The notes below the pieces were generated by a model. That model worked only from the letters and a program-made list of their open reading frames with translations, did no database searches and had not been told where the DNA came from. From NCBI GenBank assembly GCA_963932905.1, contig CAWVRN010000047.1:1-15468 (forward strand): DNA of 15,468 bases, in the 5' to 3' direction. This DNA comes from an uncultured Bdellovibrio sp. GTDB taxonomy: Bacteria; Bdellovibrionota; Bdellovibrionia; Bdellovibrionales; Bdellovibrionaceae. A program made the translations under genes and the position numbers. Positions 1,954-14,692 of this stretch are shown here, one piece after another (position 1 is the first letter of the stretch; each line of letters opens with the position of its first letter).

Positions 1954-3090
1954 TTAAATGTTAGTCCACTCGGGAGTATCCGTTAAGTTCTCCCTCACCA
2001 AATGCCGAATGATATTTTCAAAATCATTATTAAAATGATCTCTTTGTCTTTTGTAGCTCGGGCCATTTTTAATAACGATATCCAGATAACTAAAAAACTT
2101 ATTATAATCAAACTCATCTGCGATGTGCTCTAAGGACCTAACCAAATCTGCCCAAATTTGATTAAAAGGAAATGAGTTTCCGTTGAGATCGTTAATCAAA
2201 TCACATTGAACCCCGTGACGAGACGCTCGCCATTTGTTTTCGCGTAAAATCCATTCGGGAGGGGGTGAAAACTTTCTACCAAGACTAAGCTCTCTATCAA
2301 TAAAAACAGCCAAAGAATGAATGAGGGCTACCAATGCTTCTACTTCCTTCATCGTGGGAGGACAATCTGCAATTCTAACTTCGATAGTTCCATACTCTAA
2401 GTTAGGCCGAATGTCCCACCACAAATCCTTAATTGACTGAATCGATTTAGAGTAGATCAACTTTTCCACTAGAACTTCAAACTCGCTCCAACTATTTACT
2501 AGGCACGGATGGCCACCGGTTGGAATCGCTTCGAAAAAGGTAATCCTACTAGATGCTAACCCTGTATCCTGCCGATGCCAAAATGGCGAACTGGCCGATA
2601 TAGCCAGCAGAATGGGTAAATAATGGCAGAGGGCATTGTTCATCAAAATGGCGTGCTCTCCATTTTTCATCCCCAAATGCACATGGAGTCCAAAAATTTG
2701 TAGTCTGCGCGTGATCCACTTATTTCTATCAACAAGCGAAAAATACCGACTACTGGGGGTCAGGAGGCGTTCTGTATAATGAGCAAACGGGTGAGTTCCC
2801 GCCATCATAACTTCGGCATCATGTAGTGTTGCCGACGATCTTACTTTATCGAGTGAAGCTCGAAGTGAAGCTCCGACTTGACTTGCATTATCGCAAATTG
2901 GGGTATCGATTTCTAACATACTTTGAAAAATTTCTGACTTTATATGAACAGCATCTTTGTCATTTTTTAGAGCCTCTAAAATGACCGGACCTACCGGCTT
3001 AAGATCTCCTGATGTTGGATCTATTAATTGTATTTCGACCTCGACACCGAGACGAATTGATTTATTTTCATTAAAAATTAGTTCTGCCAT
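1954..3090 (-). CDS. ybdK: YbdK-family carboxylate-amine ligase (glutamate--cysteine ligase 2, GCS2)
   Basis: Family motifs LGVEVEIQL, AGTHPF, GLHVHLG, SASSPFW, TGLASSR, WWDIRP, GTIEVRIAD, ENKWRASRHG; 378 aa. Confidence 0.9.
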   Translation of the reverse strand: MAELIFNENKSIRLGVEVEIQLIDPTSGDLKPVGPVILEALKNDKDAVHIKSEIFQSMLEIDTPICDNASQVGASLRASLDKVRSSATLHDAEVMMAGTHPFAHYTERLLTPSSRYFSLVDRNKWITRRLQIFGLHVHLGMKNGEHAILMNNALCHYLPILLAISASSPFWHRQDTGLASSRITFFEAIPTGGHPCLVNSWSEFEVLVEKLIYSKSIQSIKDLWWDIRPNLEYGTIEVRIADCPPTMKEVEALVALIHSLAVFIDRELSLGRKFSPPPEWILRENKWRASRHGVQCDLINDLNGNSFPFNQIWADLVRSLEHIADEFDYNKFFSYLDIVIKNGPSYKRQRDHFNNDFENIIRHLVRENLTDTPEWTNI

Positions 3091-3103
3091 AGGTCAACCT
3101 TAC

Positions 3104-3157
3104 TAGTGGCGACCCTACCAACTAAATACTTTTGAGATCAAATTATCTCAAAACCCA
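3104..3157 (-). ncRNA. Riboswitch-like cis-regulatory RNA, copy 1 (ybdK leader), nhaA-I-like
   Basis: - strand: TGGG-TTTTGAGAT/AATTTG/ATCTCAAAA-GT-ATT-TAG(T)T-GGTAGGGTCGCC-ACTA. Core 12-mer at 3108-3119, 17 nt before the ybdK ATG. Confidence 0.72.
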
Positions 3158-3408
3158 AATGATAACATTAAAATGTTGATAATACTGAAAAACAGTCACT
3201 AAAATAGTTCATTTCTGAAATTTGATAAAGTCTTGTTTTCTAAAGAACTATAGCTATAAGTCTTTCACACTTTACTTTGAGTACAAATGAAAATATGCTA
3301 AATCTATGTATGTATCTGAATTTTCTCCATCATTCCGATCAAAAATGATACATTCTAACGCATTTAAAGCACTTCAAGTTCCAATAAACTATAGCCGGCA
3401 GCGTAGTC

Positions 3409-3819
3409 GTGGATGATTCAAAGATTCCAGAACAAGTTAGGCATTTTATTTATAAGTACATTGATTCAGTTGAGATTCTAGAAATTTTGCTATTTCTACG
3501 TTCGCATCCGGAAGAATGGAATTCAGCAGAACAAATTAATGCCGAATTAAAGACTCAAGCCTCTTCAATTGCCAAGAAATTAATAATTTTAAAATCATTC
3601 GGCTTTCTAGAAGAAGACCCTGCAACCGTAGGTAAATATAAATTTGCGCCAACAACAGGAGAAATTGAGATAAGTATTGGTCTCCTGGCAGAGGAATATA
3701 AAATAAGACGTTACCGAGTTTATGAATTAATTTTTTCTCAGAAAAATCATATTAAAAATTTCGCTGACGCTTTTATAATAGTGAACAACAAAAACAAAAA
3801 GGATGATGAAAGTGGCTGA
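3409..3819 (+). CDS. Hypothetical protein, winged-helix-like, of the type usually found upstream of DUF5985 gene pairs
   Basis: 136 aa ORF with GTG start. The pattern IPEQVRHFI..IDSVEILEILLFL and the C-terminal IKNFADAF resemble this family as I recall it. Overlaps the next gene. Confidence 0.7.
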   Translation: MDDSKIPEQVRHFIYKYIDSVEILEILLFLRSHPEEWNSAEQINAELKTQASSIAKKLIILKSFGFLEEDPATVGKYKFAPTTGEIEISIGLLAEEYKIRRYRVYELIFSQKNHIKNFADAFIIVNNKNKKDDESG

Positions 3820-4075
3820 GATAGTATATGCATTATGTTTTTTCTTAAGCGTTTTATGTGCATTTTTATTATTCCGCAAATATCTCAATTCCAAATTAAG
3901 CTTATTGTTATGGACAGGACTTTCTTTTTTCTTTATCGCTATCAATAATCTTATTCTATTTGTTGATCTGGTAATTTATCCCGAATTAGATTTTAGCGGC
4001 GGGCTATTAAGAGTCCTTAGCGGCGCAATAGGTGGATGCATTCTTTTATTCGGCCTAATATGGGAGGCAAAATGA
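3812..4075 (+). CDS. DUF5985-like small membrane protein (about 3 TM)
   Basis: MAEIVYALC...LLLWTGLSF...INNLILFVDLVIYP...LLFGLIWE fits the DUF5985 pattern. GTG3812 is preferred over ATG3803 because AGGA lies 8 nt upstream. Confidence 0.75.
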   Translation: MAEIVYALCFFLSVLCAFLLFRKYLNSKLSLLLWTGLSFFFIAINNLILFVDLVIYPELDFSGGLLRVLSGAIGGCILLFGLIWEAK

Positions 4076-4362
4076 ACTTCATAGGCTTCCTTTCTGGTAT
4101 TTATATGATATCTTTTGCCGCTTCCGGCCTCATTTTCCTTAACTTTTTCAAATCCACCGGTGATCGATTTTTTAAGTATTTTTGCTATGCCTGCTGGATG
4201 CTATCAATTGAGCGATTCGCTTTATTTTTAATTGCAAATCCACTACCTGCGCAGCCAAATGTCGTTTCGGAAACGGAAACTTGGGTTTATTTGTTCCGCC
4301 TATTTGCATTTTTGATAATTCTCTACGCGATTGTCGACAAAAATAGAAAGTCAAAATCGTAA
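4072..4362 (+). CDS. DUF5985-like small membrane protein, second member of the pair
   Basis: FFKSTGDRFF...VYLFRLFAFLIILYAIVDKNR pattern. ATG4072 overlaps the upstream TGA (ATGA), with SD GGAGG at 4063-4067. Confidence 0.75.
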   Translation: MNFIGFLSGIYMISFAASGLIFLNFFKSTGDRFFKYFCYACWMLSIERFALFLIANPLPAQPNVVSETETWVYLFRLFAFLIILYAIVDKNRKSKS

Positions 4363-4439
4363 CAAATTAATTAACGCCATTATTCTCGCCATCACTCGCC
4401 CAAAACTTAAGTTAAATTATTAATTTCATTTCAACTAGC

Positions 4440-4541
4440 TTATTTTCGACGTCTCTCTAAATAAAACAGTCCTACTAAAACCACGACAGGAACAAGAACA
4501 AAAGTAAGGTCGACTAACTTGTTAGCGACGTCATCAGACAT
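4440..4541 (-). CDS. Small single-TM membrane protein, 33 aa (MSDDVANKLVDLTFVLVPVVVLVGLFYLERRRK), not in the ORF track
   Basis: Translated by hand. SD GGAG 5 nt before the ATG; hydrophobic stretch followed by a basic tail; downstream of motif copy 2; paralogous to 4681-4806. Confidence 0.72.
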   Translation of the reverse strand: MSDDVANKLVDLTFVLVPVVVLVGLFYLERRRK

Positions 4542-4555
4542 AAAAACTCCATTAA

Positions 4556-4582
4556 GTTAAATGGCGACCCTACCATTTGAAC
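4556..4582 (-). ncRNA. Riboswitch-like element, copy 2 (partial: second hairpin only)
   Basis: - strand GTT(C)AAAT-GGTAGGGTCGCC-ATTTAAC. Core at 4563-4574, 21 nt before ATG4541. No upstream TGGG-hairpin found. Confidence 0.55.
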
Positions 4583-4618
4583 AATAACTCTTTACTATAA
4601 CTTCTATTTTTTAACAAA

Positions 4619-4646
4619 ATTATATGTCATGTGATCATTTTAGCAA
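4619..4646 (-). promoter_or_regulatory. Putative sigma70 promoter for the 33-aa small ORF
   Basis: TTGCTA (4646-4641), 16-nt spacer, TATAAT (4624-4619) on the - strand. Confidence 0.45.
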
Positions 4647-4680
4647 CTCTTCACTGTCCGTTTTGCTTTACATCACAGTA

Positions 4681-4806
4681 TTAATCATCTTTCGTTTTCT
4701 TTTTTTTCTGTCTTTTTTCCCATATAACTATTCCAACAATGATGAAAGCTAACGGAATAATAAAGTAAGCAATTTCTGTAAATTTAGCGGCCCATGGTCC
4801 AGACAT
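4681..4806 (-). CDS. Small single-TM membrane protein, 41 aa (MSGPWAAKFTEIAYFIIPLAFIIVGIVIWEKRQKKKKTKDD), not in the ORF track
   Basis: Translated by hand. SD GGAG 4 nt before the ATG; TM segment followed by a polybasic tail; downstream of motif copy 3; paralogous to 4440-4541. Confidence 0.75.
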   Translation of the reverse strand: MSGPWAAKFTEIAYFIIPLAFIIVGIVIWEKRQKKKKTKDD

Positions 4807-4825
4807 AGTACTCCATTTTATTATT

Positions 4826-4879
4826 AAATGGCGACCCTACCATTTCAAAACTTTCACTCAATCTGCTAAGCGAAACCCA
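4826..4879 (-). ncRNA. Riboswitch-like cis-regulatory RNA, copy 3 (41-aa small ORF leader), nhaA-I-like
   Basis: - strand: TGGG-TTTCGCTTAG/CAGA/TTGAGTGAAA-GT-TTTG-AAAT-GGTAGGGTCGCC-ATTT. Core at 4830-4841, 23 nt before ATG4806. Confidence 0.72.
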
Positions 4880-4922
4880 TTCAATTTATTAATTCACTTT
4901 TATGTTTATACGTTTGATTATA

Positions 4923-6194
4923 TCACAAAAACCAAAAACAAATCGCGGCAATTAAAGTCGGAACCAATGCATTTTTAAAAAGTAAAATTGGACTAATACC
5001 ATCTTTATCGAAAGCAGGATTTAGAGTGCTGTACCCTGCAGGATTTGGCGCATTCGCAATTACTGTTAATCCACCACCCACAACACTACCAGCTACAAGC
5101 GCATATTTCGAAAAATCAGATAATCCTTCAACTTGACTGCCGAGATAAGTAATCGCAGCATTGTCCGTAAAAGCAGTAAGGCCCATCGCGCCCAAATAAA
5201 GTGGTAAGGCTGATAGTTTGGAAAGAATGGGTTCTAGCCACCAATTTTGATATCCCCCCAACACCACTAACCCACCAAGAAAAAATCCCACTAACAAAGC
5301 TTCTTTGATCCTTATTTCGTCCTGATACTCGCGCGTGACAGTAGTAACTCCCATGAAAAACAAAAACAAACCCATGAATAAGACAGTATAATGTGATGAC
5401 AACACAGTTCCTACTAAGAATAACAAATGCAGTACAGTGACCCAAATAGGAATCTTCAAATTCGTTTTCTCTTCAACATTTTGCGGAACCTGCGATATTT
5501 CCTTTCGGAAACGATAGGTCACTAGCGATGCAGATAAAAACACTGCAAAAAAGGCTTTCCAACCAAAGTTAGTAAGCATAAAGCTCAGATCCCAATTCCA
5601 TTTGGAAGCAACCATTAATACTGGAGGCGCCGCAAATGGCGTTAGTGTCCCTCCAATTGAAACATTAACAAATAGAAGTCCAAGGGTCGCATACTTTAGT
5701 TCATTAGAAATATTTTTCTGATAAAATGCTTTTAGTAAAATCAGTGCGGTTACCGTCATCGCGGCAGGTTCCGTAATAAAACTTCCCAAGAGTGGACCTA
5801 TGGTCAATGTCGCAAAATAAAATCCCACGGAAGACTGCAAAGGCAACAATTTACCTACTAGACGAATCAGCTTTTCGCTGAGTTGTAAAATGGGTCGAGT
5901 CGCACAAATCGTCATGATTACGAAAACAAACATGGGCTCGGTAAAATTTCGGGTTTGAAGATATTCAAGCGGTTTTTCAAATCCGCCGACACCCATAAAA
6001 AATAAAATGAATAGTCCAGCCCATATACCAAAAACCACTTCGACTTCTCCTAAAAGATGAAAAAAATTTTCACCAGCGGAACCCTCAGGAAACTTGTGCG
6101 CGATTTCTTGAAAAAACTTTACTGAAAAAGTGTGAAGGACGGCCAAGGCGAAAAACAAACTTGCGCCGTAAGATATAAATTGATGTTCAGACAT
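4923..6194 (-). CDS. Putative Na+/H+ antiporter (DUF1504 / Na_H_antiport_3 family, IT superfamily)
   Basis: 423 aa polytopic membrane protein with motifs HLLGEVEVVFGIW, GSFITEPAAMT, NVSIGGTLTPFAAPPVLMVA, DNAAITYL, GGGLTVIANAPNPAG. Confidence 0.88.
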   Translation of the reverse strand: MSEHQFISYGASLFFALAVLHTFSVKFFQEIAHKFPEGSAGENFFHLLGEVEVVFGIWAGLFILFFMGVGGFEKPLEYLQTRNFTEPMFVFVIMTICATRPILQLSEKLIRLVGKLLPLQSSVGFYFATLTIGPLLGSFITEPAAMTVTALILLKAFYQKNISNELKYATLGLLFVNVSIGGTLTPFAAPPVLMVASKWNWDLSFMLTNFGWKAFFAVFLSASLVTYRFRKEISQVPQNVEEKTNLKIPIWVTVLHLLFLVGTVLSSHYTVLFMGLFLFFMGVTTVTREYQDEIRIKEALLVGFFLGGLVVLGGYQNWWLEPILSKLSALPLYLGAMGLTAFTDNAAITYLGSQVEGLSDFSKYALVAGSVVGGGLTVIANAPNPAGYSTLNPAFDKDGISPILLFKNALVPTLIAAICFWFL

Positions 6195-6207
6195 AGGGTA
6201 CCCTCTG

Positions 6208-6264
6208 TTAACGGCGACCCTACCGTTTAAAACTCCTCAAGTAGGAAATCTACCTAAGGACCCA
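6208..6264 (-). ncRNA. Riboswitch-like cis-regulatory RNA, copy 4 (antiporter leader), nhaA-I-like
   Basis: - strand: TGGG-TCCTTAGGTAG/ATTTC/CTACTTGAGGA-GT-TTTA-AAC-GGTAGGGTCGCC-GTTAA. Core at 6213-6224, 18 nt before the antiporter ATG. Confidence 0.78.
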
Positions 6265-6360
6265 TCATAGAACAATCTCTTCGTTTACCTTACCTTCCAC
6301 ATTAAAGTCACTGCAAGTAGAAAAATTCGTTTCTGCTTTTTTTTAGCTTCAGCCTAAAAT

Positions 6361-6385
6361 ATTTTTCTGCCGCCGGCGGAAAAAT
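6361..6385. terminator. Hairpin, possible intrinsic terminator downstream of the 6547-7632 gene
   Basis: ATTTTTCTGCC-GCC-GGCGGAAAAAT inverted repeat with one wobble/mismatch. Only a short T tract follows on the - strand. Confidence 0.3.
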
Positions 6386-6546
6386 TTGAGAGTCTTTTGT
6401 GCTTCTCCTTTGGTGCAGTTGGCGTAATCTTACGAGGTGCTGGCAAGGCTCTAGCTTTACCATCCGAACAAAGAGTAAAAATTCTATTTAAATCAGATTC
6501 AGGAGTTGAATATAAGTCTTTATCACTATTCTGATTTCGCAGCGAT

Positions 6547-8610: not shown

Positions 8611-10980
8611 CTACATAGAAATTATAGTGGGTACTAATTTGTTAACTGTTGATCGATCGCCAAGCTTGGAATCAGCGTTATCACCCCAACATTTGTATAT
8701 TCCAGATTTAGTTTGAGCGCACGTATAGCCGGCACCACTCACAACATCTAAATACGTTTCGGTCGGGTCAACATGGTATAGGGAATTGACCTCGTTATTA
8801 TTAGTACCATTCCCAATATTTCCCGCGTCGTTGTCGCCCCAACAATAAAGATGATCAGACTCTGAAATCGCGCAAGCGTGAGTCACTGAAACAGAAACGT
8901 GTTTGAACTTTGTGCCGGGTTTAACCAGCTCGGGCACCTGAGCCGGACTTGAAGATCTATTATTAATATAACTTCGTCCCCAACATTTTAAATCGGCATC
9001 AGTTGTAATAGCACAACCGAATCCCCCCAAGGAAACAGACTTGTATTTAATTCCGACATCAATTTGTTTGGGTGTCGGAATATTACTTAGTGTACCATCT
9101 CCCAGTTGGTAGTCATCGTTGCGTCCCCAACATTTTAAATCTCCGCTAACTGTGATACCGCAATTAGAATCGTCGGCAGACACGACACTCGCATACAATT
9201 CACTGGAATCGATGCTTACGGGCGAAAATGATTCATCCGTTTCCCCATTGCCAAGATTATAATCGTTATTTTTCCCCCAACATTTCAATAAGCCCGAATC
9301 AGTTATCGCGCAGGCATGATTATTTCCTGCCGATAGATCTTTAAATTCTAAACCCACTTCGACTTGACTTGGATAATTTAGCTGATCTGAATGCCCCAAG
9401 CCCAACTCTCCATTAGAGTTACCACCCCAGCAATAAATTTTACTTTCCTTTGTAAGACCACATTGGAAAAAAGTTCCGTAAGAAAACTTAACAAAGTTCC
9501 ATGGATTCGAAATTTCAAATGGAGTGTTGTAATAATCAACAAGCCCTAAACCGCGAGAGAAAAGACTTCCGTTCCAGCATTTTAAACTGCCCGTAGTAGT
9601 GATCCCGCAATATACGTGTCCTAAATTCACCGATTGATAACTTGCCCCAGAATCGATAGTTACCGGGGTTGCTCGCGTGACCGTTGTACCGTCACCTACT
9701 GAACCACCATAGTTGTGTCCCCAACACTTTAAAACACCTGTCGTTGTAACACCACAGCTGTTATATTCTGATTGATGGATGGATTGGTATTGTACTCCAG
9801 AATCAATTATTGCCGGGGAAGTCGTGTTTGTCAGAGATGCATTTCCCACCAAACTCCAAAGCGGTCCACCCCAACATTTTAGGATACTGTTCGTCGTTAT
9901 TCCGCAAGTTGCCGTGCTAGATTTTACTACTCGAATATAGCTCACTGCCGAATCTACTACGACGGGCGATAACCTTACCGTTGTCGTCCCATCACCCAAT
10001 TGTCCATACTGATTTTGGCCCCAGCATTTAAGCATACCTGTTGTGGTAATGGCGCAAGCAGAATTAGTGGACAAACTCACAGTTGAATAAGTTGTACCTG
10101 AGTCAACAACGACAGGAGATGATCTATCCGTAGTACTACCGTCCCCCACAATCCCGTTATAATTGACACCCCAACATTTTAATATTCCCGTCGAAGTAAT
10201 ACCGCACGCAGAAGCTCCTCCAAGTGCTATTTTTTGATAATTTGCCCCGGCATCAATAATGGTCGGGCTCACTTTATCTAGTGAGGTTCCATCTCCAACA
10301 AGCCCATTATTATTTTCTCCCCAGCATTTTAGTTTCGCCGAAGTAGTAATACCACAAACCGTGTATCCAGAAATTTTAAGCTCGGAATACGTTTCGGACG
10401 TATCAATCGCAGTCGGTGTAGAACGTAACGTTGTAGAGCCATCACCAATCTGCCCACTTCCGTTGTAACCCCAACATTTTATTTTTCCTGATGTGGTTAT
10501 TCCGCAGGTAAAATAGTGCGAGGCCTCGATTTTTGAGTAACTTTCATTACTATCCACGGCCACTGGACCGTTTTGAGCCGTACTATTTGAAAAACCCAAT
10601 TGCCCATATTGATTACTTCCCCAACAATATAATCGATTTAAATTGGAAATAGCACACGTATGATTTAGCCCCGAGGAAACAGATAGGAACGTGGTTCCTT
10701 CAGAAACGACACGAGGTATTTCTTGGACTGAGGCATCTAAAAAATTATTGAAATCGATTGATCGCGGCCCCCAACACTTCATACGTCCATTTGTCAAATA
10801 AGCACATGTCGACGAATCGCCCTCAAATGGATTTGCAAACAAACGAGCTCTTTCAGTCGCTAGGTCTTGTTGAGGCCCAACTACTTCAGGACTTTTATTA
10901 TCTTCCGTAGAAAAACTTGAAGAACACGATACAAGAATAAAGTAGCCAAAAAATAACAGGAAAATACTGACTAGTTTCAT
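8611..10980 (-). CDS. RCC1/BLIP-II-repeat beta-propeller lipoprotein (about 789 aa)
   Basis: About 15 repeats of roughly 50 aa (C-[GA]-I-T..G.LKCWG.N..G.[LV]G.G). ATG10980 gives a lipoprotein signal MKLVSIFLLFFGYFILVS-C, so it is preferred over TTG11007. Confidence 0.9.
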   Translation of the reverse strand: MKLVSIFLLFFGYFILVSCSSSFSTEDNKSPEVVGPQQDLATERARLFANPFEGDSSTCAYLTNGRMKCWGPRSIDFNNFLDASVQEIPRVVSEGTTFLSVSSGLNHTCAISNLNRLYCWGSNQYGQLGFSNSTAQNGPVAVDSNESYSKIEASHYFTCGITTSGKIKCWGYNGSGQIGDGSTTLRSTPTAIDTSETYSELKISGYTVCGITTSAKLKCWGENNNGLVGDGTSLDKVSPTIIDAGANYQKIALGGASACGITSTGILKCWGVNYNGIVGDGSTTDRSSPVVVDSGTTYSTVSLSTNSACAITTTGMLKCWGQNQYGQLGDGTTTVRLSPVVVDSAVSYIRVVKSSTATCGITTNSILKCWGGPLWSLVGNASLTNTTSPAIIDSGVQYQSIHQSEYNSCGVTTTGVLKCWGHNYGGSVGDGTTVTRATPVTIDSGASYQSVNLGHVYCGITTTGSLKCWNGSLFSRGLGLVDYYNTPFEISNPWNFVKFSYGTFFQCGLTKESKIYCWGGNSNGELGLGHSDQLNYPSQVEVGLEFKDLSAGNNHACAITDSGLLKCWGKNNDYNLGNGETDESFSPVSIDSSELYASVVSADDSNCGITVSGDLKCWGRNDDYQLGDGTLSNIPTPKQIDVGIKYKSVSLGGFGCAITTDADLKCWGRSYINNRSSSPAQVPELVKPGTKFKHVSVSVTHACAISESDHLYCWGDNDAGNIGNGTNNNEVNSLYHVDPTETYLDVVSGAGYTCAQTKSGIYKCWGDNADSKLGDRSTVNKLVPTIISM

Positions 10981-10987
10981 AGTCAAA

Positions 10988-11014
10988 CTATCGACATTTG
11001 AGGGCAAATCTTTA
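10988..11014 (-). promoter_or_regulatory. Putative sigma28 (FliA) promoter of the RCC1 lipoprotein gene
   Basis: TAAA (11014-11011), 15-nt spacer, GTCGATAG (10995-10988), versus consensus TAAA-N15-GCCGATAA. Confidence 0.55.
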
Positions 11015-11253: not shown

Positions 11254-13203
11254 ATGCAAAGACGAATGATACTAGATAAGTCTTTGCTTATCGTCGTTAG
11301 CATTTTTTGCATCATTTTATTTCAAAACTGCGGGCAAAATTTCAAAATCCTCGAAGACGGACAGGCCGGTTTGAGTTCTAGTCAGCCAGAATCAGATATC
11401 TTATTCGCTGAAAAAAATATTTACGCCAATAAATGTGCAACTTGCCACGGCTCATTCGCAATATCGAATTTAAAAAATCGTATCATCACGAAAGAAAAAA
11501 TAACGAATGCAACTAATTCTATTACGGCTATGCGATTTTTAAAAGGAGCTCTTTCCGAAGATCAGCTGGCCGCGATAGAACGCCTCTTTGCTCAACCGCC
11601 TACGTCGTCTCCGTTGATTTCATCTTTTGAATGCACTTCGCCGGAAGAAGAAAAAAATAGCTCCATTGATTTAATTAGATTATCTGGAAAAGAATTAATT
11701 AATACCTATAAAACCCTTATTCCTTCCACTATTTGGAGCAACCTAAGCCCGTATACCTATCTGCTACCCACCGACAGCTTTAGTAACAAAATCTCAACGG
11801 CACTGTCTTCCTACAGTCAGTCACAAATCACAAGGGTTTCTGAATTTAATGACAAGCTCTCCAGCGAAATCACCTCAACCACTAGTAAAATCGCTGCTTT
11901 TTTCGGTTCGTGCGCCTCCACGACAAGTTTCACAAAATCCTGCTTCGATAGTTTCATGAATGCAAAGGCAAGTCGCATCTACCGATCGGCGCTTGCAACC
12001 GATGAGCTTTCTACCACGTGGGATGCGATATCTACGTTATCACCCGTCAACGATCAATTAAAAACATTAATACAAATTCTATTTAATGATCCTCGCTTCC
12101 TATATCATCTGGAAATCGGTGACGGTTCACCGACTACAAACGGTCTTTACCCGCTTTCCTCATACGAAATTGCCAATCGAATTTCATACGGAATGCTTGA
12201 GTCCCCACCCGATGATGCTCTCTGGAATGATGCCGTTGCCGGTCGCCTTAAATCGTTGCCAACCATTTCCGCACATGTGGATAGAATGGCCAATTCACAA
12301 TCGTTCCAAGCACGTATCATACAATTTATGAAATTTTATATTGGAAAATCACCCACTAATCCTCCAGCTAGTGCTGAATTTTTAAATGGCTTGAACACCA
12401 GTACTCTAGGCGCTGATCTTGAAACCGAGTTTGAAGACTTTATTAGGTACATCGTTTTTACGAAAAAAGGAAATTTATCTGAACTATTTACCTCGCCGGC
12501 AGCTTTTCCCAAAACGTCGGCCGTCGCATCTATATTTGGCACCTCGACTACATCTTCAAGCACACCGGTAGAAGCGCCCAACCATTCTGGAATTATAACT
12601 CGTCCATTCTTTGTGCTGGCAACGTCACCCAACGTAAAATCCGTTCAGCGTGGACGAGCTATCCGCATGAATATGCTGTGCACGGATATCCCTCAACCAT
12701 CCGCAGAAGACTTAGCGGCACGCCCTACGTTGACTGAAAGTGACCTACTGTCCTTAAGCAGTCGTCATTATATCGACAAGGCTACATTGGCAGCTCCTAG
12801 CTGTATCGTATGTCATTCCAAAATGAATCAGCTGGGATTCACCTTGGGTCACTATGATTCCGTAGGTCGCTTCATGACAGTCGAAGGTATCTACAATTCC
12901 AGCGGTACCAAGGTCGCTAACCACGTAATTGATTCTACGACCAAGCCGATGATCACCGAAATCGACAATAGTCAATTTGCGGGGGCTATGGATTTTCAAA
13001 ATTCCCTCTACCGTTCTGATGTCCTTCAACAATGTATGACAACAAAAGCATTTGAGTTCTTTTCTCGCCAAGTCGCGAACGTAAGCATGGATTCGTGTCG
13101 TTTAAATAAAATGGACAATGCCATTAAAAGCGGAAAATCACTTTTTGATTTCTTTAATGAAAACTTTAAGCAGCCAAGTATTCTCTACCGAAGGGGTAAC
13201 TAG
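11254..13203 (+). CDS. DUF1595/DUF1592/DUF1588/DUF1585-type lipoprotein with c-type heme motifs
   Basis: Lipoprotein signal ending LFQNC; CxxCH motifs CATCH (11434-11448) and CIVCH (12802-12816); family motifs PRFLYHLE, LSSYEIANRISY..ESPPDDAL, VQRG..IR..MLC, LGFTLGHYDSVGRF. Confidence 0.85.
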   Translation: MQRRMILDKSLLIVVSIFCIILFQNCGQNFKILEDGQAGLSSSQPESDILFAEKNIYANKCATCHGSFAISNLKNRIITKEKITNATNSITAMRFLKGALSEDQLAAIERLFAQPPTSSPLISSFECTSPEEEKNSSIDLIRLSGKELINTYKTLIPSTIWSNLSPYTYLLPTDSFSNKISTALSSYSQSQITRVSEFNDKLSSEITSTTSKIAAFFGSCASTTSFTKSCFDSFMNAKASRIYRSALATDELSTTWDAISTLSPVNDQLKTLIQILFNDPRFLYHLEIGDGSPTTNGLYPLSSYEIANRISYGMLESPPDDALWNDAVAGRLKSLPTISAHVDRMANSQSFQARIIQFMKFYIGKSPTNPPASAEFLNGLNTSTLGADLETEFEDFIRYIVFTKKGNLSELFTSPAAFPKTSAVASIFGTSTTSSSTPVEAPNHSGIITRPFFVLATSPNVKSVQRGRAIRMNMLCTDIPQPSAEDLAARPTLTESDLLSLSSRHYIDKATLAAPSCIVCHSKMNQLGFTLGHYDSVGRFMTVEGIYNSSGTKVANHVIDSTTKPMITEIDNSQFAGAMDFQNSLYRSDVLQQCMTTKAFEFFSRQVANVSMDSCRLNKMDNAIKSGKSLFDFFNENFKQPSILYRRGN

Positions 13204-13204
13204 T

Positions 13205-14692
13205 ATGAATCAAAACAGAAGAAATTTTATCAAATCGGGTTCATTACTGTTTACGATTCCGTTTGTTGAAGCCCTGCCGAGTCTAGGCTTTGCCGCCAGT
13301 GCCAGTGGATCTCTAAAACGAGTTCTATTTTTTAACTTGAGCCAGTCCTGGGCACAAGATCAGATTTTCCCTACAGCTACTAACTATTCCGTAGGTCCCG
13401 AAGGAGTCCGCTACATTCCGTTAAACTCGTTTAGCGGCGACATATCAAAACTTTTTACCGCCTCTAAGTACGCTGGCATTAAAAGCAAAATGAATATTAT
13501 GAGAGGCTTCGACTGCGTAAAAACAGACATTCTAGGTGGCGGTGGACACAACAAAGGCCTGGCTATGAGCGCGTGTTTTGAAAATGCGTCGAATATGCAG
13601 TTGAAAACAATTGATCACGTTATTGCCGAATCGCCAGGGTTTTACCCAACAACTCCCCATCGAAAAGTATTTAGCGCCATCGCTGCGAAAGGGAATTTTT
13701 CCTGGAGGTACAGTAATTCATTTAACCTCACCAAGCCTATCGCTGATTTGATCGGCGCCGGTGCGTGCTACACCAATGCAGAAGGAACGAAGGAAATATT
13801 TTCAGATCTTTTTTCAACCCCGCTACCTAGCGGTAGCACCGCCCCGGTCGATTCCAATCTATCGCGACGTATAGCCTTGAACAATGCGCTTAGCAAATTA
13901 AACCTTTTATCAAAAAATACAAAAATTTCAAAACATGGACAGCAGACATTCACTCAACACGCTGATTTTATCAATCAAATTTTACCCTCGATTGCGCCCC
14001 CATCTGGCTCGTCGTCAGGACTTTCAGGCACCTGCTTAAAACCCACACTAGACACAGCTATCAACGATTCCGAACTATCGACATCCAACAATGGCAAACG
14101 CTTGCGGGCATGTTTAGACATGATTTACATGGCTTTTAATTGTCAGCTGACGAATGTCGTTTCCTTTTTTCCAATGATCGCAGCCGACAACGAAAATGCA
14201 GCGATGGGAGACGACGTCGGCATCTATCACGAAAATGTCGGGCATAAATATAATCCGGAATATTACCTCGCCCATAAAGGATTTTTATTTGATAACTTGA
14301 TGTACTTAGTGAACTTGATGGACTCCACAAAAGAGAGCAACGGTTTATCCATGTTAGATAATAGTTTAATTGTCGTAGTTTCCGATGATGGCTGTGCCAC
14401 TCATAGCTATCGTGATCTTGGCGCCATTACATTTGGTTCTTTAGGCGGTACGATCAAAACGGGAAATTTTATTAACTTTCAGCGAACCGATGCTCCGCTT
14501 ATTGATGGTGGGTCTGATAACGGCCGCTATTTTTATAATTTAGGCCGTCCTTATAATTCTCTGTTCACTACTATCCTGAATGCTTTGAAAATTTCAAATT
14601 CAGGTTTCGGTATATACCCCACATCATCGACTAATTATGCGCCTTTCATAACGGCCTCCGCGAAGGCAGCGAGTCTACCGATTTTGAGTTAG
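13205..14692 (+). CDS. DUF1552-family protein with Tat signal (about 495 aa)
   Basis: ATG13205, 1 nt after the upstream stop, gives MNQNRRNFIK (twin-arginine) plus IPFVEAL. Motifs TIDHVIA, AFNCQLTNV, E.NG.SMLDNSLI, HS, FGSLGG.IKTG. Usual partner of DUF1592 genes. Confidence 0.85.
   Translation: MNQNRRNFIKSGSLLFTIPFVEALPSLGFAASASGSLKRVLFFNLSQSWAQDQIFPTATNYSVGPEGVRYIPLNSFSGDISKLFTASKYAGIKSKMNIMRGFDCVKTDILGGGGHNKGLAMSACFENASNMQLKTIDHVIAESPGFYPTTPHRKVFSAIAAKGNFSWRYSNSFNLTKPIADLIGAGACYTNAEGTKEIFSDLFSTPLPSGSTAPVDSNLSRRIALNNALSKLNLLSKNTKISKHGQQTFTQHADFINQILPSIAPPSGSSSGLSGTCLKPTLDTAINDSELSTSNNGKRLRACLDMIYMAFNCQLTNVVSFFPMIAADNENAAMGDDVGIYHENVGHKYNPEYYLAHKGFLFDNLMYLVNLMDSTKESNGLSMLDNSLIVVVSDDGCATHSYRDLGAITFGSLGGTIKTGNFINFQRTDAPLIDGGSDNGRYFYNLGRPYNSLFTTILNALKISNSGFGIYPTSSTNYAPFITASAKAASLPILS

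Follow-up and report, generated by a model that had tools for sequence, protein, structure and literature searches.

We describe here a conserved, structured RNA leader element that occurs four times in a 15,468 nt stretch of DNA from an uncultured Bdellovibrio sp. (assembly GCA_963932905.1, contig CAWVRN010000047.1; the whole stretch is referred to as the window) and that probably represents a distinct, uncatalogued consensus class within the nhaA-I (Li+-I/Na+-II) superfamily of alkali-cation riboswitches, with a predicted role as an ON switch. Its ligand is most likely a monovalent cation, which may well be Na+; something else is a lesser possibility and Li+ a slighter one, Na+ being favoured over Li+ because a sodium-coupled importer among the downstream genes fits Na+ sensing better than Li+ detoxification.

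The element is marked by an exact 12-mer, GGTAGGGTCGCC, found on the minus strand of the window at 3108-3119 (copy 1), 4563-4574 (copy 2), 4830-4841 (copy 3) and 6213-6224 (copy 4). These four copies had been reported in an earlier reading made from the letters alone (the sequence-only reading) and a pattern search recovered them all, against a chance expectation of 0.36 in the window and with four copies reached in none of 200 dinucleotide shuffles; allowing up to two mismatches gave no extra match in the window. Judged by the sequence and the list of open reading frames (ORFs), all four are, as had been claimed, intergenic and in sense orientation, standing 17, 21, 23 and 18 nt (copies 1 to 4) upstream of ATGs at 3090, 4541, 4806 and 6194. 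The source genome (4,552,505 bases in 58 contigs, 40.7% GC) holds just five exact copies, each of them in sense and followed by an ATG 17-23 nt downstream, the fifth lying on contig C22, 19 nt 5' of the ATG of a 49-aa ORF. With only five copies in 4.55 Mb, in sense and ahead of ATGs, the motif is therefore not a scattered repetitive extragenic palindromic (REP)-like repeat; scattering regardless of orientation was one of the outcomes that the sequence-only reading had named as speaking against its proposal.

The complete element is about 55-60 nt long and consists of a 5' GGGU, a first paired region (P1) of 5-11 bp whose sequence is free, an AGU junction, a U/A-rich linker and a second hairpin (P2), in which 3-4 variable pairs are followed by G-C, G-C and U.G pairs closing the hexaloop AGGGUC. 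GGTAGGGTCGCC is the apex of P2, with UAGGGUCG as its loop. Copies 1, 3 and 4 and the C22 copy have this layout in common, with a P1 of 9-11 bp that varies in sequence from copy to copy, and coordinates and model scores are given in Table 1. The closing stems named beforehand, TAGT(T)/ACTA, AAAT/ATTT and AAC/GTT, are all present in the window sequence, as is the upstream half proposed for three copies (GGG(U), a differing hairpin of 9-11 bp, then GT), which is seen with the 12-mers at 3108, 4830 and 6213. That half is missing at 4563, where copy 2 has P2 only, without the 5' GGGU or a canonical P1, and is aligned to positions 33-54 of 59 by R1, a covariance model that we built from 12 sequences. 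Across the aligned R1 matches the conserved unpaired bases are GGGU, AGU and UAGGGUCG. The hexaloop is AGGGUC in 34 of 37 of them, the truncated copy 2 counted; the other loops are AGGGGC in the copy upstream of nhaA and an AGGGUC with an A-U closing pair in L043, and the match L053, which has no loop, was treated as a false positive. The junction after P1 is AGU in the complete elements and AGGU in one intermediate form only (L059).

Table 1 Elements, predicted expression platforms and downstream genes in the window, with the two C22 features (prefix L007) from elsewhere in the source genome
Feature	Position	Strand	Details
Copy 1, complete aptamer	3100..3158	-	GGGU 3156-3153; bulged U in P2; R1 69.3 bits, E 5.7e-15
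Copy 1, predicted expression platform	3088..3099	-	GGUUGACCU + ATG; predicted to pair with aptamer GGGUCGCC
GCS2/YbdK-family carboxylate-amine ligase, 378 aa, behind copy 1	1954..3090	-	PF04107 E 2.4e-49; TIGR02050 276 bits vs cut-off 176.4
Copy 2, truncated element	4560..4581	-	P2 + loop; R1 27.7 bits
33-aa single-transmembrane (TM) peptide ORF behind copy 2	4440..4541	-	Homologous to other motif-associated peptides
Copy 3, complete aptamer	4822..4880	-	GGGU 4878-4875; R1 64.4 bits
41-aa single-TM peptide ORF behind copy 3	4681..4806	-	No Pfam/NCBIfam family
Copy 4, complete aptamer	6205..6265	-	GGGU 6263-6260, 11-bp P1, AGU, linker, P2 loop UAGGGUCG; R1 63.7 bits, E 1.3e-13
Copy 4, predicted expression platform	6192..6212	-	Shine-Dalgarno-like GAGGGU; ACCCU directly before ATG 6194-6192; predicted to pair with aptamer 3' half UAGGGU...
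Putative Na+/H+ antiporter, 423 aa, behind copy 4	4923..6194	-	PF07399 Na_H_antiport_3 E 1.2e-176; weak PF07854 DUF1646
C22 sixth element	L007:1606-1668	+	Loop AGGGGC; 15 nt 5' of NhaA ORF L007:1684-2895 (TIGR00773, 415 bits)
C22 peptide ORF with element	L007:2929-3078	-	nhaA-linked element convergent with the peptide-controlling copy

The element is an RNA structure and not a DNA operator or repeat, as both helices covary strongly, which bears out the aptamer-like structure proposed from the sequence. In the 37 family-level R1 matches 93.1% of cells form a standard pair compared with 72.6% after shuffling (0/500 shuffles as high), 12 of the 13 pairs have changed on both sides, and the covariation score is 0.641 against 0.267 for shuffled alignments and 0.09-0.21 when partners are slid along, with none of 500 shuffles reaching it. 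A cross-phylum set gave much the same picture (95.2% paired, covariation 0.614, double changes at 10/13 pairs), and even the GG/CC pairs within GGTAGGGTCGCC covary, appearing as GA/UC and AG/CU. A script filter that requires at least five P1 pairs and uses no alignment returned 69 candidate stretches with 67 distinct cores, of which L068, L135 and L181 were removed as doubtful; each of the 64 representatives left has a hairpin of 5-11 bp that spans exactly from GGGU to GU.

How such a structure could control the gene behind it is suggested by the sequence between aptamer and start codon, where modelling predicts that the aptamer overlaps a mutually exclusive expression platform and thereby implies a translational ON switch. 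Of 59 representatives, 28 have the trinucleotide CCU adjoining the start codon on its 5' side, compared with 31 of 1643 (1.9%) ORFs of the source genome that are preceded by a Shine-Dalgarno (SD) sequence. We do not regard this CCU box as a separate feature because the loop and the P2 3' strand (UAGGGUCGCCAUU...) are predicted to pair with the SD-to-start segment as one extended hairpin. In minimum free energy (MFE) structures the 3' half of the aptamer forms at least four pairs with the last 18 nt up to and including the start codon in 56/59 representatives. The sequestor has a mean z-score of -2.85 relative to shuffles of the downstream part, with z below -1 in 46/59, and the P2 3' strand binds its own SD region at -5.25 kcal/mol as against -4.32 +/- 0.18 kcal/mol for permuted partners, a value as low being found in none of 300 permutations.

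The energetics differ between individual copies. Forming P2 is predicted to cost 3-6 kcal/mol relative to the state that combines P1 with the sequestor in copies 1, 3 and 4 and in the C22 peptide copy, the MFE being -29.6 with the sequestor and -23.9 with P2 forced for copy 4, and -19.6 and -14.1 for copy 1; in copy 3 the P2 3' strand CCAUUU has a possible pairing partner in the SD segment AAAUGGAG. The nhaA copy has the two states at about the same energy, and the sequestor of copy 2 is weak. In the mechanism that we propose, the loop and P2 3' strand would, without ligand, pair with the SD-to-start segment (for example AAUGGUGGCCU-AUG or GAGGGUACCCU-AUG), and the resulting sequestor hairpin would hide the ribosome-binding site. 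Binding of a cation would stabilise the P1/P2 aptamer and retain the anti-SD strand within it, leaving the ribosome-binding site free for translation to start. In a Syntrophales representative (L089:401-490, +) the linker is longer and, where other members have the SD sequestor, the same strand would form an intrinsic terminator with GGGUCGCCA...UGGCGGCC and then U7. This terminator platform is seen in L089 only, the window copies and 56/59 representatives having a predicted SD/start sequestor. A promoter scan gave no support for transcription starts (9 promoter-like sites vs 11.0 +/- 3.4 in shuffles). Copy 3 starts about 40 nt past the antiporter stop codon (4923 to 4880, minus strand) and copy 2 lies behind the 41-aa ORF, and because of this spacing the antiporter, 41-aa and 33-aa genes may form one transcript with internal translational switches.

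The closest architectural relative is the nhaA-I motif, which is the Li+-I riboswitch, Rfam RF03057 (Weinberg et al. 2017, PMC5737381; White et al. 2022, PMC9646797). Read from alignments of sub-threshold matches, the RF03057 consensus is GGGU-[GC...GC]-AGGU-uuaugc-GaUGGU CGGGCC GCCAuC, and the validated Li+-I and Desulfobulbus propionicus Na+-II constructs in supplementary Table II of PMC9646797 follow the same plan. The nhaA-I core that the sequence-only reading had put forward (a 5' GGGU and GGUCGGGCCGCC) agrees with this consensus and with the constructs listed there, and its proposal of a variant nhaA-I architecture holds in that GGGU, P1, the purine-GU junction, the U-rich linker and the 6-nt loop closed by GGU/GCC all match RF03057. 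Both RNAs thus have a 5' GGGU ahead of P1, two hairpins, a short U-rich linker, a GGU...GCC P2 and GGG in the middle of a 6-nt loop; both occur in the 5' leaders of Na+/H+ antiporter genes, nhaA among them, and in some cases of small hypothetical ones; and ON-type control via the ribosome-binding site is proposed for both. They part company in the junction, which is AGU in our element, one G fewer than the AGGU of nhaA-I, in the hexaloop (AGGGUC instead of CGGGCC) and in the lowest P1 pairs, which are G-C then C-G in nhaA-I and Y-R (U-A or C-G) here. The earlier statement that the core differs at two positions is thus true of the 12-mer and falls short for the element, whose junction and lowest P1 pairs differ too. 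The element also differs in having a peptide of about 30-50 aa as its main target and Bdellovibrionota and Verrucomicrobiota as its hosts.

Because the junction, the hexaloop and the lowest P1 pairs differ consistently, the element would count as a separate consensus type by the criteria used in the field. In section 5 of PMC9646797 the lower P1 and the P2 loop are the positions that separate the Na+-I consensus from nhaA-I, and according to section 8 a single C/U difference beside the loop (C54U) changes Li+/Na+ selectivity. An intermediate form was found at L059:1501-1564 (+), with an AGGU junction and a GGC AGGGGC GCC top, upstream of a protein of 84 aa with a peptide-like C-terminus. One Opitutaceae-type genome carries both an AGU/AGGGUC variant (L116) and L189, which scores 23 bits with RF03057 and has GGC CGGGCC GCC with C at the Na+-II position; such co-occurrence hints that the AGU variant and the nhaA-I-like type are not redundant.

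Two further classes invite comparison. Na+-II riboswitches are described in section 8 of PMC9646797 as rare nhaA-I variants from D. propionicus. The element resembles them in having GGGU followed by a P1 able to begin CC...GG, in preceding small or hypothetical genes of former Deltaproteobacteria and in the use of the P2 3' half by the terminator or sequestor, the L089 terminator being of the same design. It departs from them in that Na+-II has C at the loop-closing position (C54), AGC CGGGCC GCU and an unchanged AGGU, whereas the element has U, GGU AGGGUC GCC and AGU, and in that most members here have a predicted translational platform, unlike the terminator of Na+-II. The Na+-I riboswitch (the DUF1646 motif, RF03071 'Sodium'; White et al. 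2022, PMC9337991) likewise has two hairpins, a layout that its authors describe in PMC9646797 as similar to nhaA-I, and its genes overlap with those found here (DUF1646-like/Na_H_antiport_3, dapB, osmotic and sodium-use genes). The RF03071 consensus, GG-UUGGGC... with a UUUCAA-GA junction, is nevertheless not present in the element.

Profile searches are in keeping with an uncatalogued type. Rfam 15 at gathering thresholds gave no family at the motif in the window, nor did any family match it at E<=10 on 2900-6500, 6185-6300 and 3085-3165, on 12 related loci and on the intermediate variant L059, the SNORA43, CopA, UPD-PKb and other matches returned at that level being attributed to chance. The Rfam scan of the leaders that the sequence-only reading had suggested as a check thus yielded no nhaA-I or Sodium match, and with it no canonical hit. 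RF03057 has a gathering threshold of 37 bits, above which a Caulobacter vibrioides positive control scored; it had no match in the source genome, none at E<=0.1 in 151 phylum genomes, though 5 of those sampled besides the source carry the element, none at E<=1e-4 in 41 genomes of the Caulobacteraceae-type family, and only sub-threshold matches in five genomes reached via loci. RF03071, with a threshold of 40.5 bits, gave 6 weak matches in the source genome, the best at 16.2 bits and none at the motif. No description of the AGU/AGGGUC variant was found in the literature searched, PMC11109978 included, a scope outside which lay subscription-journal papers and the nhaA-I Stockholm alignments. Of the gene associations that White et al. 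tabulate in their supplement for 944 nhaA-I RNAs, 171 are classed as 'hypothetical', and some AGGGUC-loop members may sit unremarked among these.

The exact 12-mer was located in 10 of the 36 same-family genomes examined and in none of 24 genomes from other families of the order. Of its 11 matches in relatives 8 have the full architecture; the other three (L009, L011 and L012) were dropped as chance occurrences, the upstream half being missing. A covariance-model search of Bdellovibrionota, also suggested beforehand, was run with R1 and matched 32 of 151 genomes in the same family, representing 11 of 41 genera, and 11 of 151 genomes across a sample of the phylum, three further families included. 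The source genome itself has six R1 elements, five complete and the truncated copy 2. The motif is more than the local expansion controlling four genes that had been proposed, one of the six elements lying before nhaA on another contig and the class reaching other phyla. Scanning one genome per species for the pattern gave at least 121 loci, and R1 matched at least 38 stretches among the first 80 of those listed and at least 22 among the other 41, the weakest few being partial or doubtful. Among the matches listed, good ones include Bdellovibrio bacteriovorus s4 and Bd5, Bdellovibrio sp. HCB117 and HCB337 and many Bdellovibrionales, Pseudobdellovibrionaceae, Bacteriovoracaceae and Oligoflexia assemblies, and outside the Bdellovibrionota at least seven loci from Verrucomicrobiota and at least one each from Cloacimonadota, Pirellula and Syntrophales. 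Many high-GC hits of the pattern scan, from Actinomycetota and others, had no R1 score and were dropped.

The genes behind the element were tallied over the 64 representatives. The claim that copy 4 precedes a Na+/H+ antiporter is borne out by its PF07399 match, yet the commonest target is a tiny membrane peptide and not an antiporter: homologous single-TM peptides of about 29-51 aa, with some of up to 67 aa, follow about 22 of the 64, compared with GCS2 in 7, Na_H_antiport_3 in 6, NhaA in 3, a Na+-dependent nucleoside transporter (PF01773) in 2, a DapB-like protein in 2 and, in Pirellula, a single Proton_antipo_N protein just below cut-off with a weak MrpA-like N-terminus. The remainder are genes without an assignment. 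The peptides start with MS or ME and share the motif ...K(L/F)(V/L)(D/N)L..I.P...FF.LEKRRK, with a hydrophobic stretch before LEKRRK, and in genomes of the B. bacteriovorus type they are the sole type of gene behind the element. No Pfam or NCBIfam family covers the motif-associated peptides, and a Protein Atlas search with the peptide gave a best score of 0.82, under the level counted as above a lead. A conserved ORF without assigned function follows about 100 nt behind the element in four Opitutae-type loci. Antiporters, dapB and sodium-coupled transport are themes reported for Na+-I riboswitches (PMC9337991).

Several points weigh against placing the element among the cation riboswitches. 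The gene most often found downstream is a peptide without an assigned function, and we know of no established link between GCS2 and sodium. Even at E<=10 the nhaA-I and Sodium models miss copies 1 and 4 and 12 related loci, and R1 in turn does not match the nhaA-I-like L186 and L189; since no profile score is significant, homology with nhaA-I rests on shared architecture and short motifs. In the M2 construct of PMC9646797 the GG of AGGU is replaced by AA (supplement), and the main text reports M2 as unresponsive. Taken together with the single G of our junction, this loss means that the binding pocket may be substantially different, or may bind no ion at all. The CCU box is absent from copies 2 and 3, and copy 2 is without half of the aptamer. 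As to the structure, RNAalifold on a plain MAFFT alignment gives P2 only (6 pairs) and does not recover P1, the pair counts were made on alignments that are fitted to the model, drawn from genomes related to one another and biased towards structure, and the cross-phylum set (A5) was selected on the exact 12-mer.

The element could instead be a divergent Li+-I lineage with the same ligand, Li+, and the same function, in phyla that the Rfam seed lacks, and would then only add members to a known class. The shared layout with its invariant GGGU, GGU..GCC and central loop GGG, the position of one element upstream of nhaA (the signature gene of Li+-I), the intermediate L059 with its AGGU junction and GGC AGGGGC GCC top, and the 171 'hypothetical' genes listed in the table of White et al., among which such variants could already be included, would all suit that reading. 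We nonetheless consider it unlikely, given that three core features (AGU, AGGGUC and the P1 base) differ consistently from Li+-I across phyla, that lower P1 and P2 loop are what the authors of PMC9646797 use in the sections cited to split classes, with C54U as a single change that alters specificity, and that RF03057 finds nothing at E<=0.1 in 151 phylum genomes although five sampled genomes other than the source have the element. A regulon containing a Na+-coupled nucleoside importer and a DapB-like enzyme also fits the use of, or adaptation to, Na+ over Li+ detoxification, and the variant L116 and the nhaA-I-like L189 are held side by side by one Opitutaceae genome. Carrying the reading of a distinct class one step further, the element may be a further alkali-cation class with a specificity of its own, for Na+ or for as yet unassigned K+, NH4+ or alkaline pH, and with the Bdellovibrionota peptide of 30-50 aa as its primary target, a proposal that we hold tentatively.

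Readings that dispense with a cation aptamer fare less well. It is improbable that the leader is structured and ligand-free, serving as a site for a protein or small RNA or opening its sequestor in direct response to temperature, pH or ionic strength. A protein might just as well be what contacts GGGU and the invariant 8-nt loop, the equilibrium between sequestor and P2 could be shifted by any factor, and in loci of the B. bacteriovorus type the element stands behind a histidine kinase gene; against this, no conserved gene for a protein partner was seen adjoining the element, direct ion binding has been demonstrated in PMC9646797 for the RNAs nearest to it in architecture, and the core is kept in at least four phyla with unrelated neighbouring genes, a pattern typical of self-contained riboswitches. 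Many copies have AAUGG or GAUGG at the end of the P2 5' strand, with the AUG in frame with the loop, and AUG GUA GGG UCG CCA would encode M-V-G-S-P, as in a leader-peptide (mini-ORF) attenuator. This is very improbable: the AUG is not conserved (AACGG in copy 4, GUUGG in copy 1 and AGUGG, AGCGG or CCGGUGG in others), no SD precedes it, and changes in P2 keep base pairing rather than coding. The recurrence of one 12-mer within 3.1 kb might recall a DNA-level element, whether a transcription-factor operator or a REP-like repeat, and to this we give almost no credence, as the few genomic copies keep one orientation and a fixed distance to start codons, the helices covary without conservation of sequence and the motif, unlike usual DNA operators, is not palindromic.

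In the window an OmpR-type response regulator and a histidine kinase (1-1942, +) adjoin the GCS2 gene, and in a B. bacteriovorus-type locus (L026:1636-3048, -) the element and its peptide come after a histidine kinase gene. Between copies 2 and 1 (3409-4362, +) lie a 136-aa ORF without a family and two overlapping small membrane proteins of DUF5985 (PF19447). Further along the window are an RCC1-repeat protein of 798 aa (8611-11007, -) and a gene pair comprising a DUF1592/DUF1588/cytochrome-like gene and a DUF1552 gene (11254-14692, +).

To our knowledge few RNA classes that sense alkali metal ions exist, namely Na+-I, Na+-II, Li+-I and Li+-II. As a distinct class in the nhaA-I superfamily, the element would be a natural and widespread third version of the core of this fold, its junction shorter by one G and its loop changed at two positions, and would offer a direct comparison for how small RNAs discriminate between ions. 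It would also extend cation riboswitches to the predatory Bdellovibrionota and to Verrucomicrobiota, which are blank in current Rfam models, and would mark the tiny membrane peptides, the GCS2 ligase and the DapB-like enzyme as probable parts of a salt response. If the element does have a specificity of its own, the conserved and unannotated single-pass peptide would point to a small-protein component of sodium or pH homeostasis in these bacteria, including cultured B. bacteriovorus.

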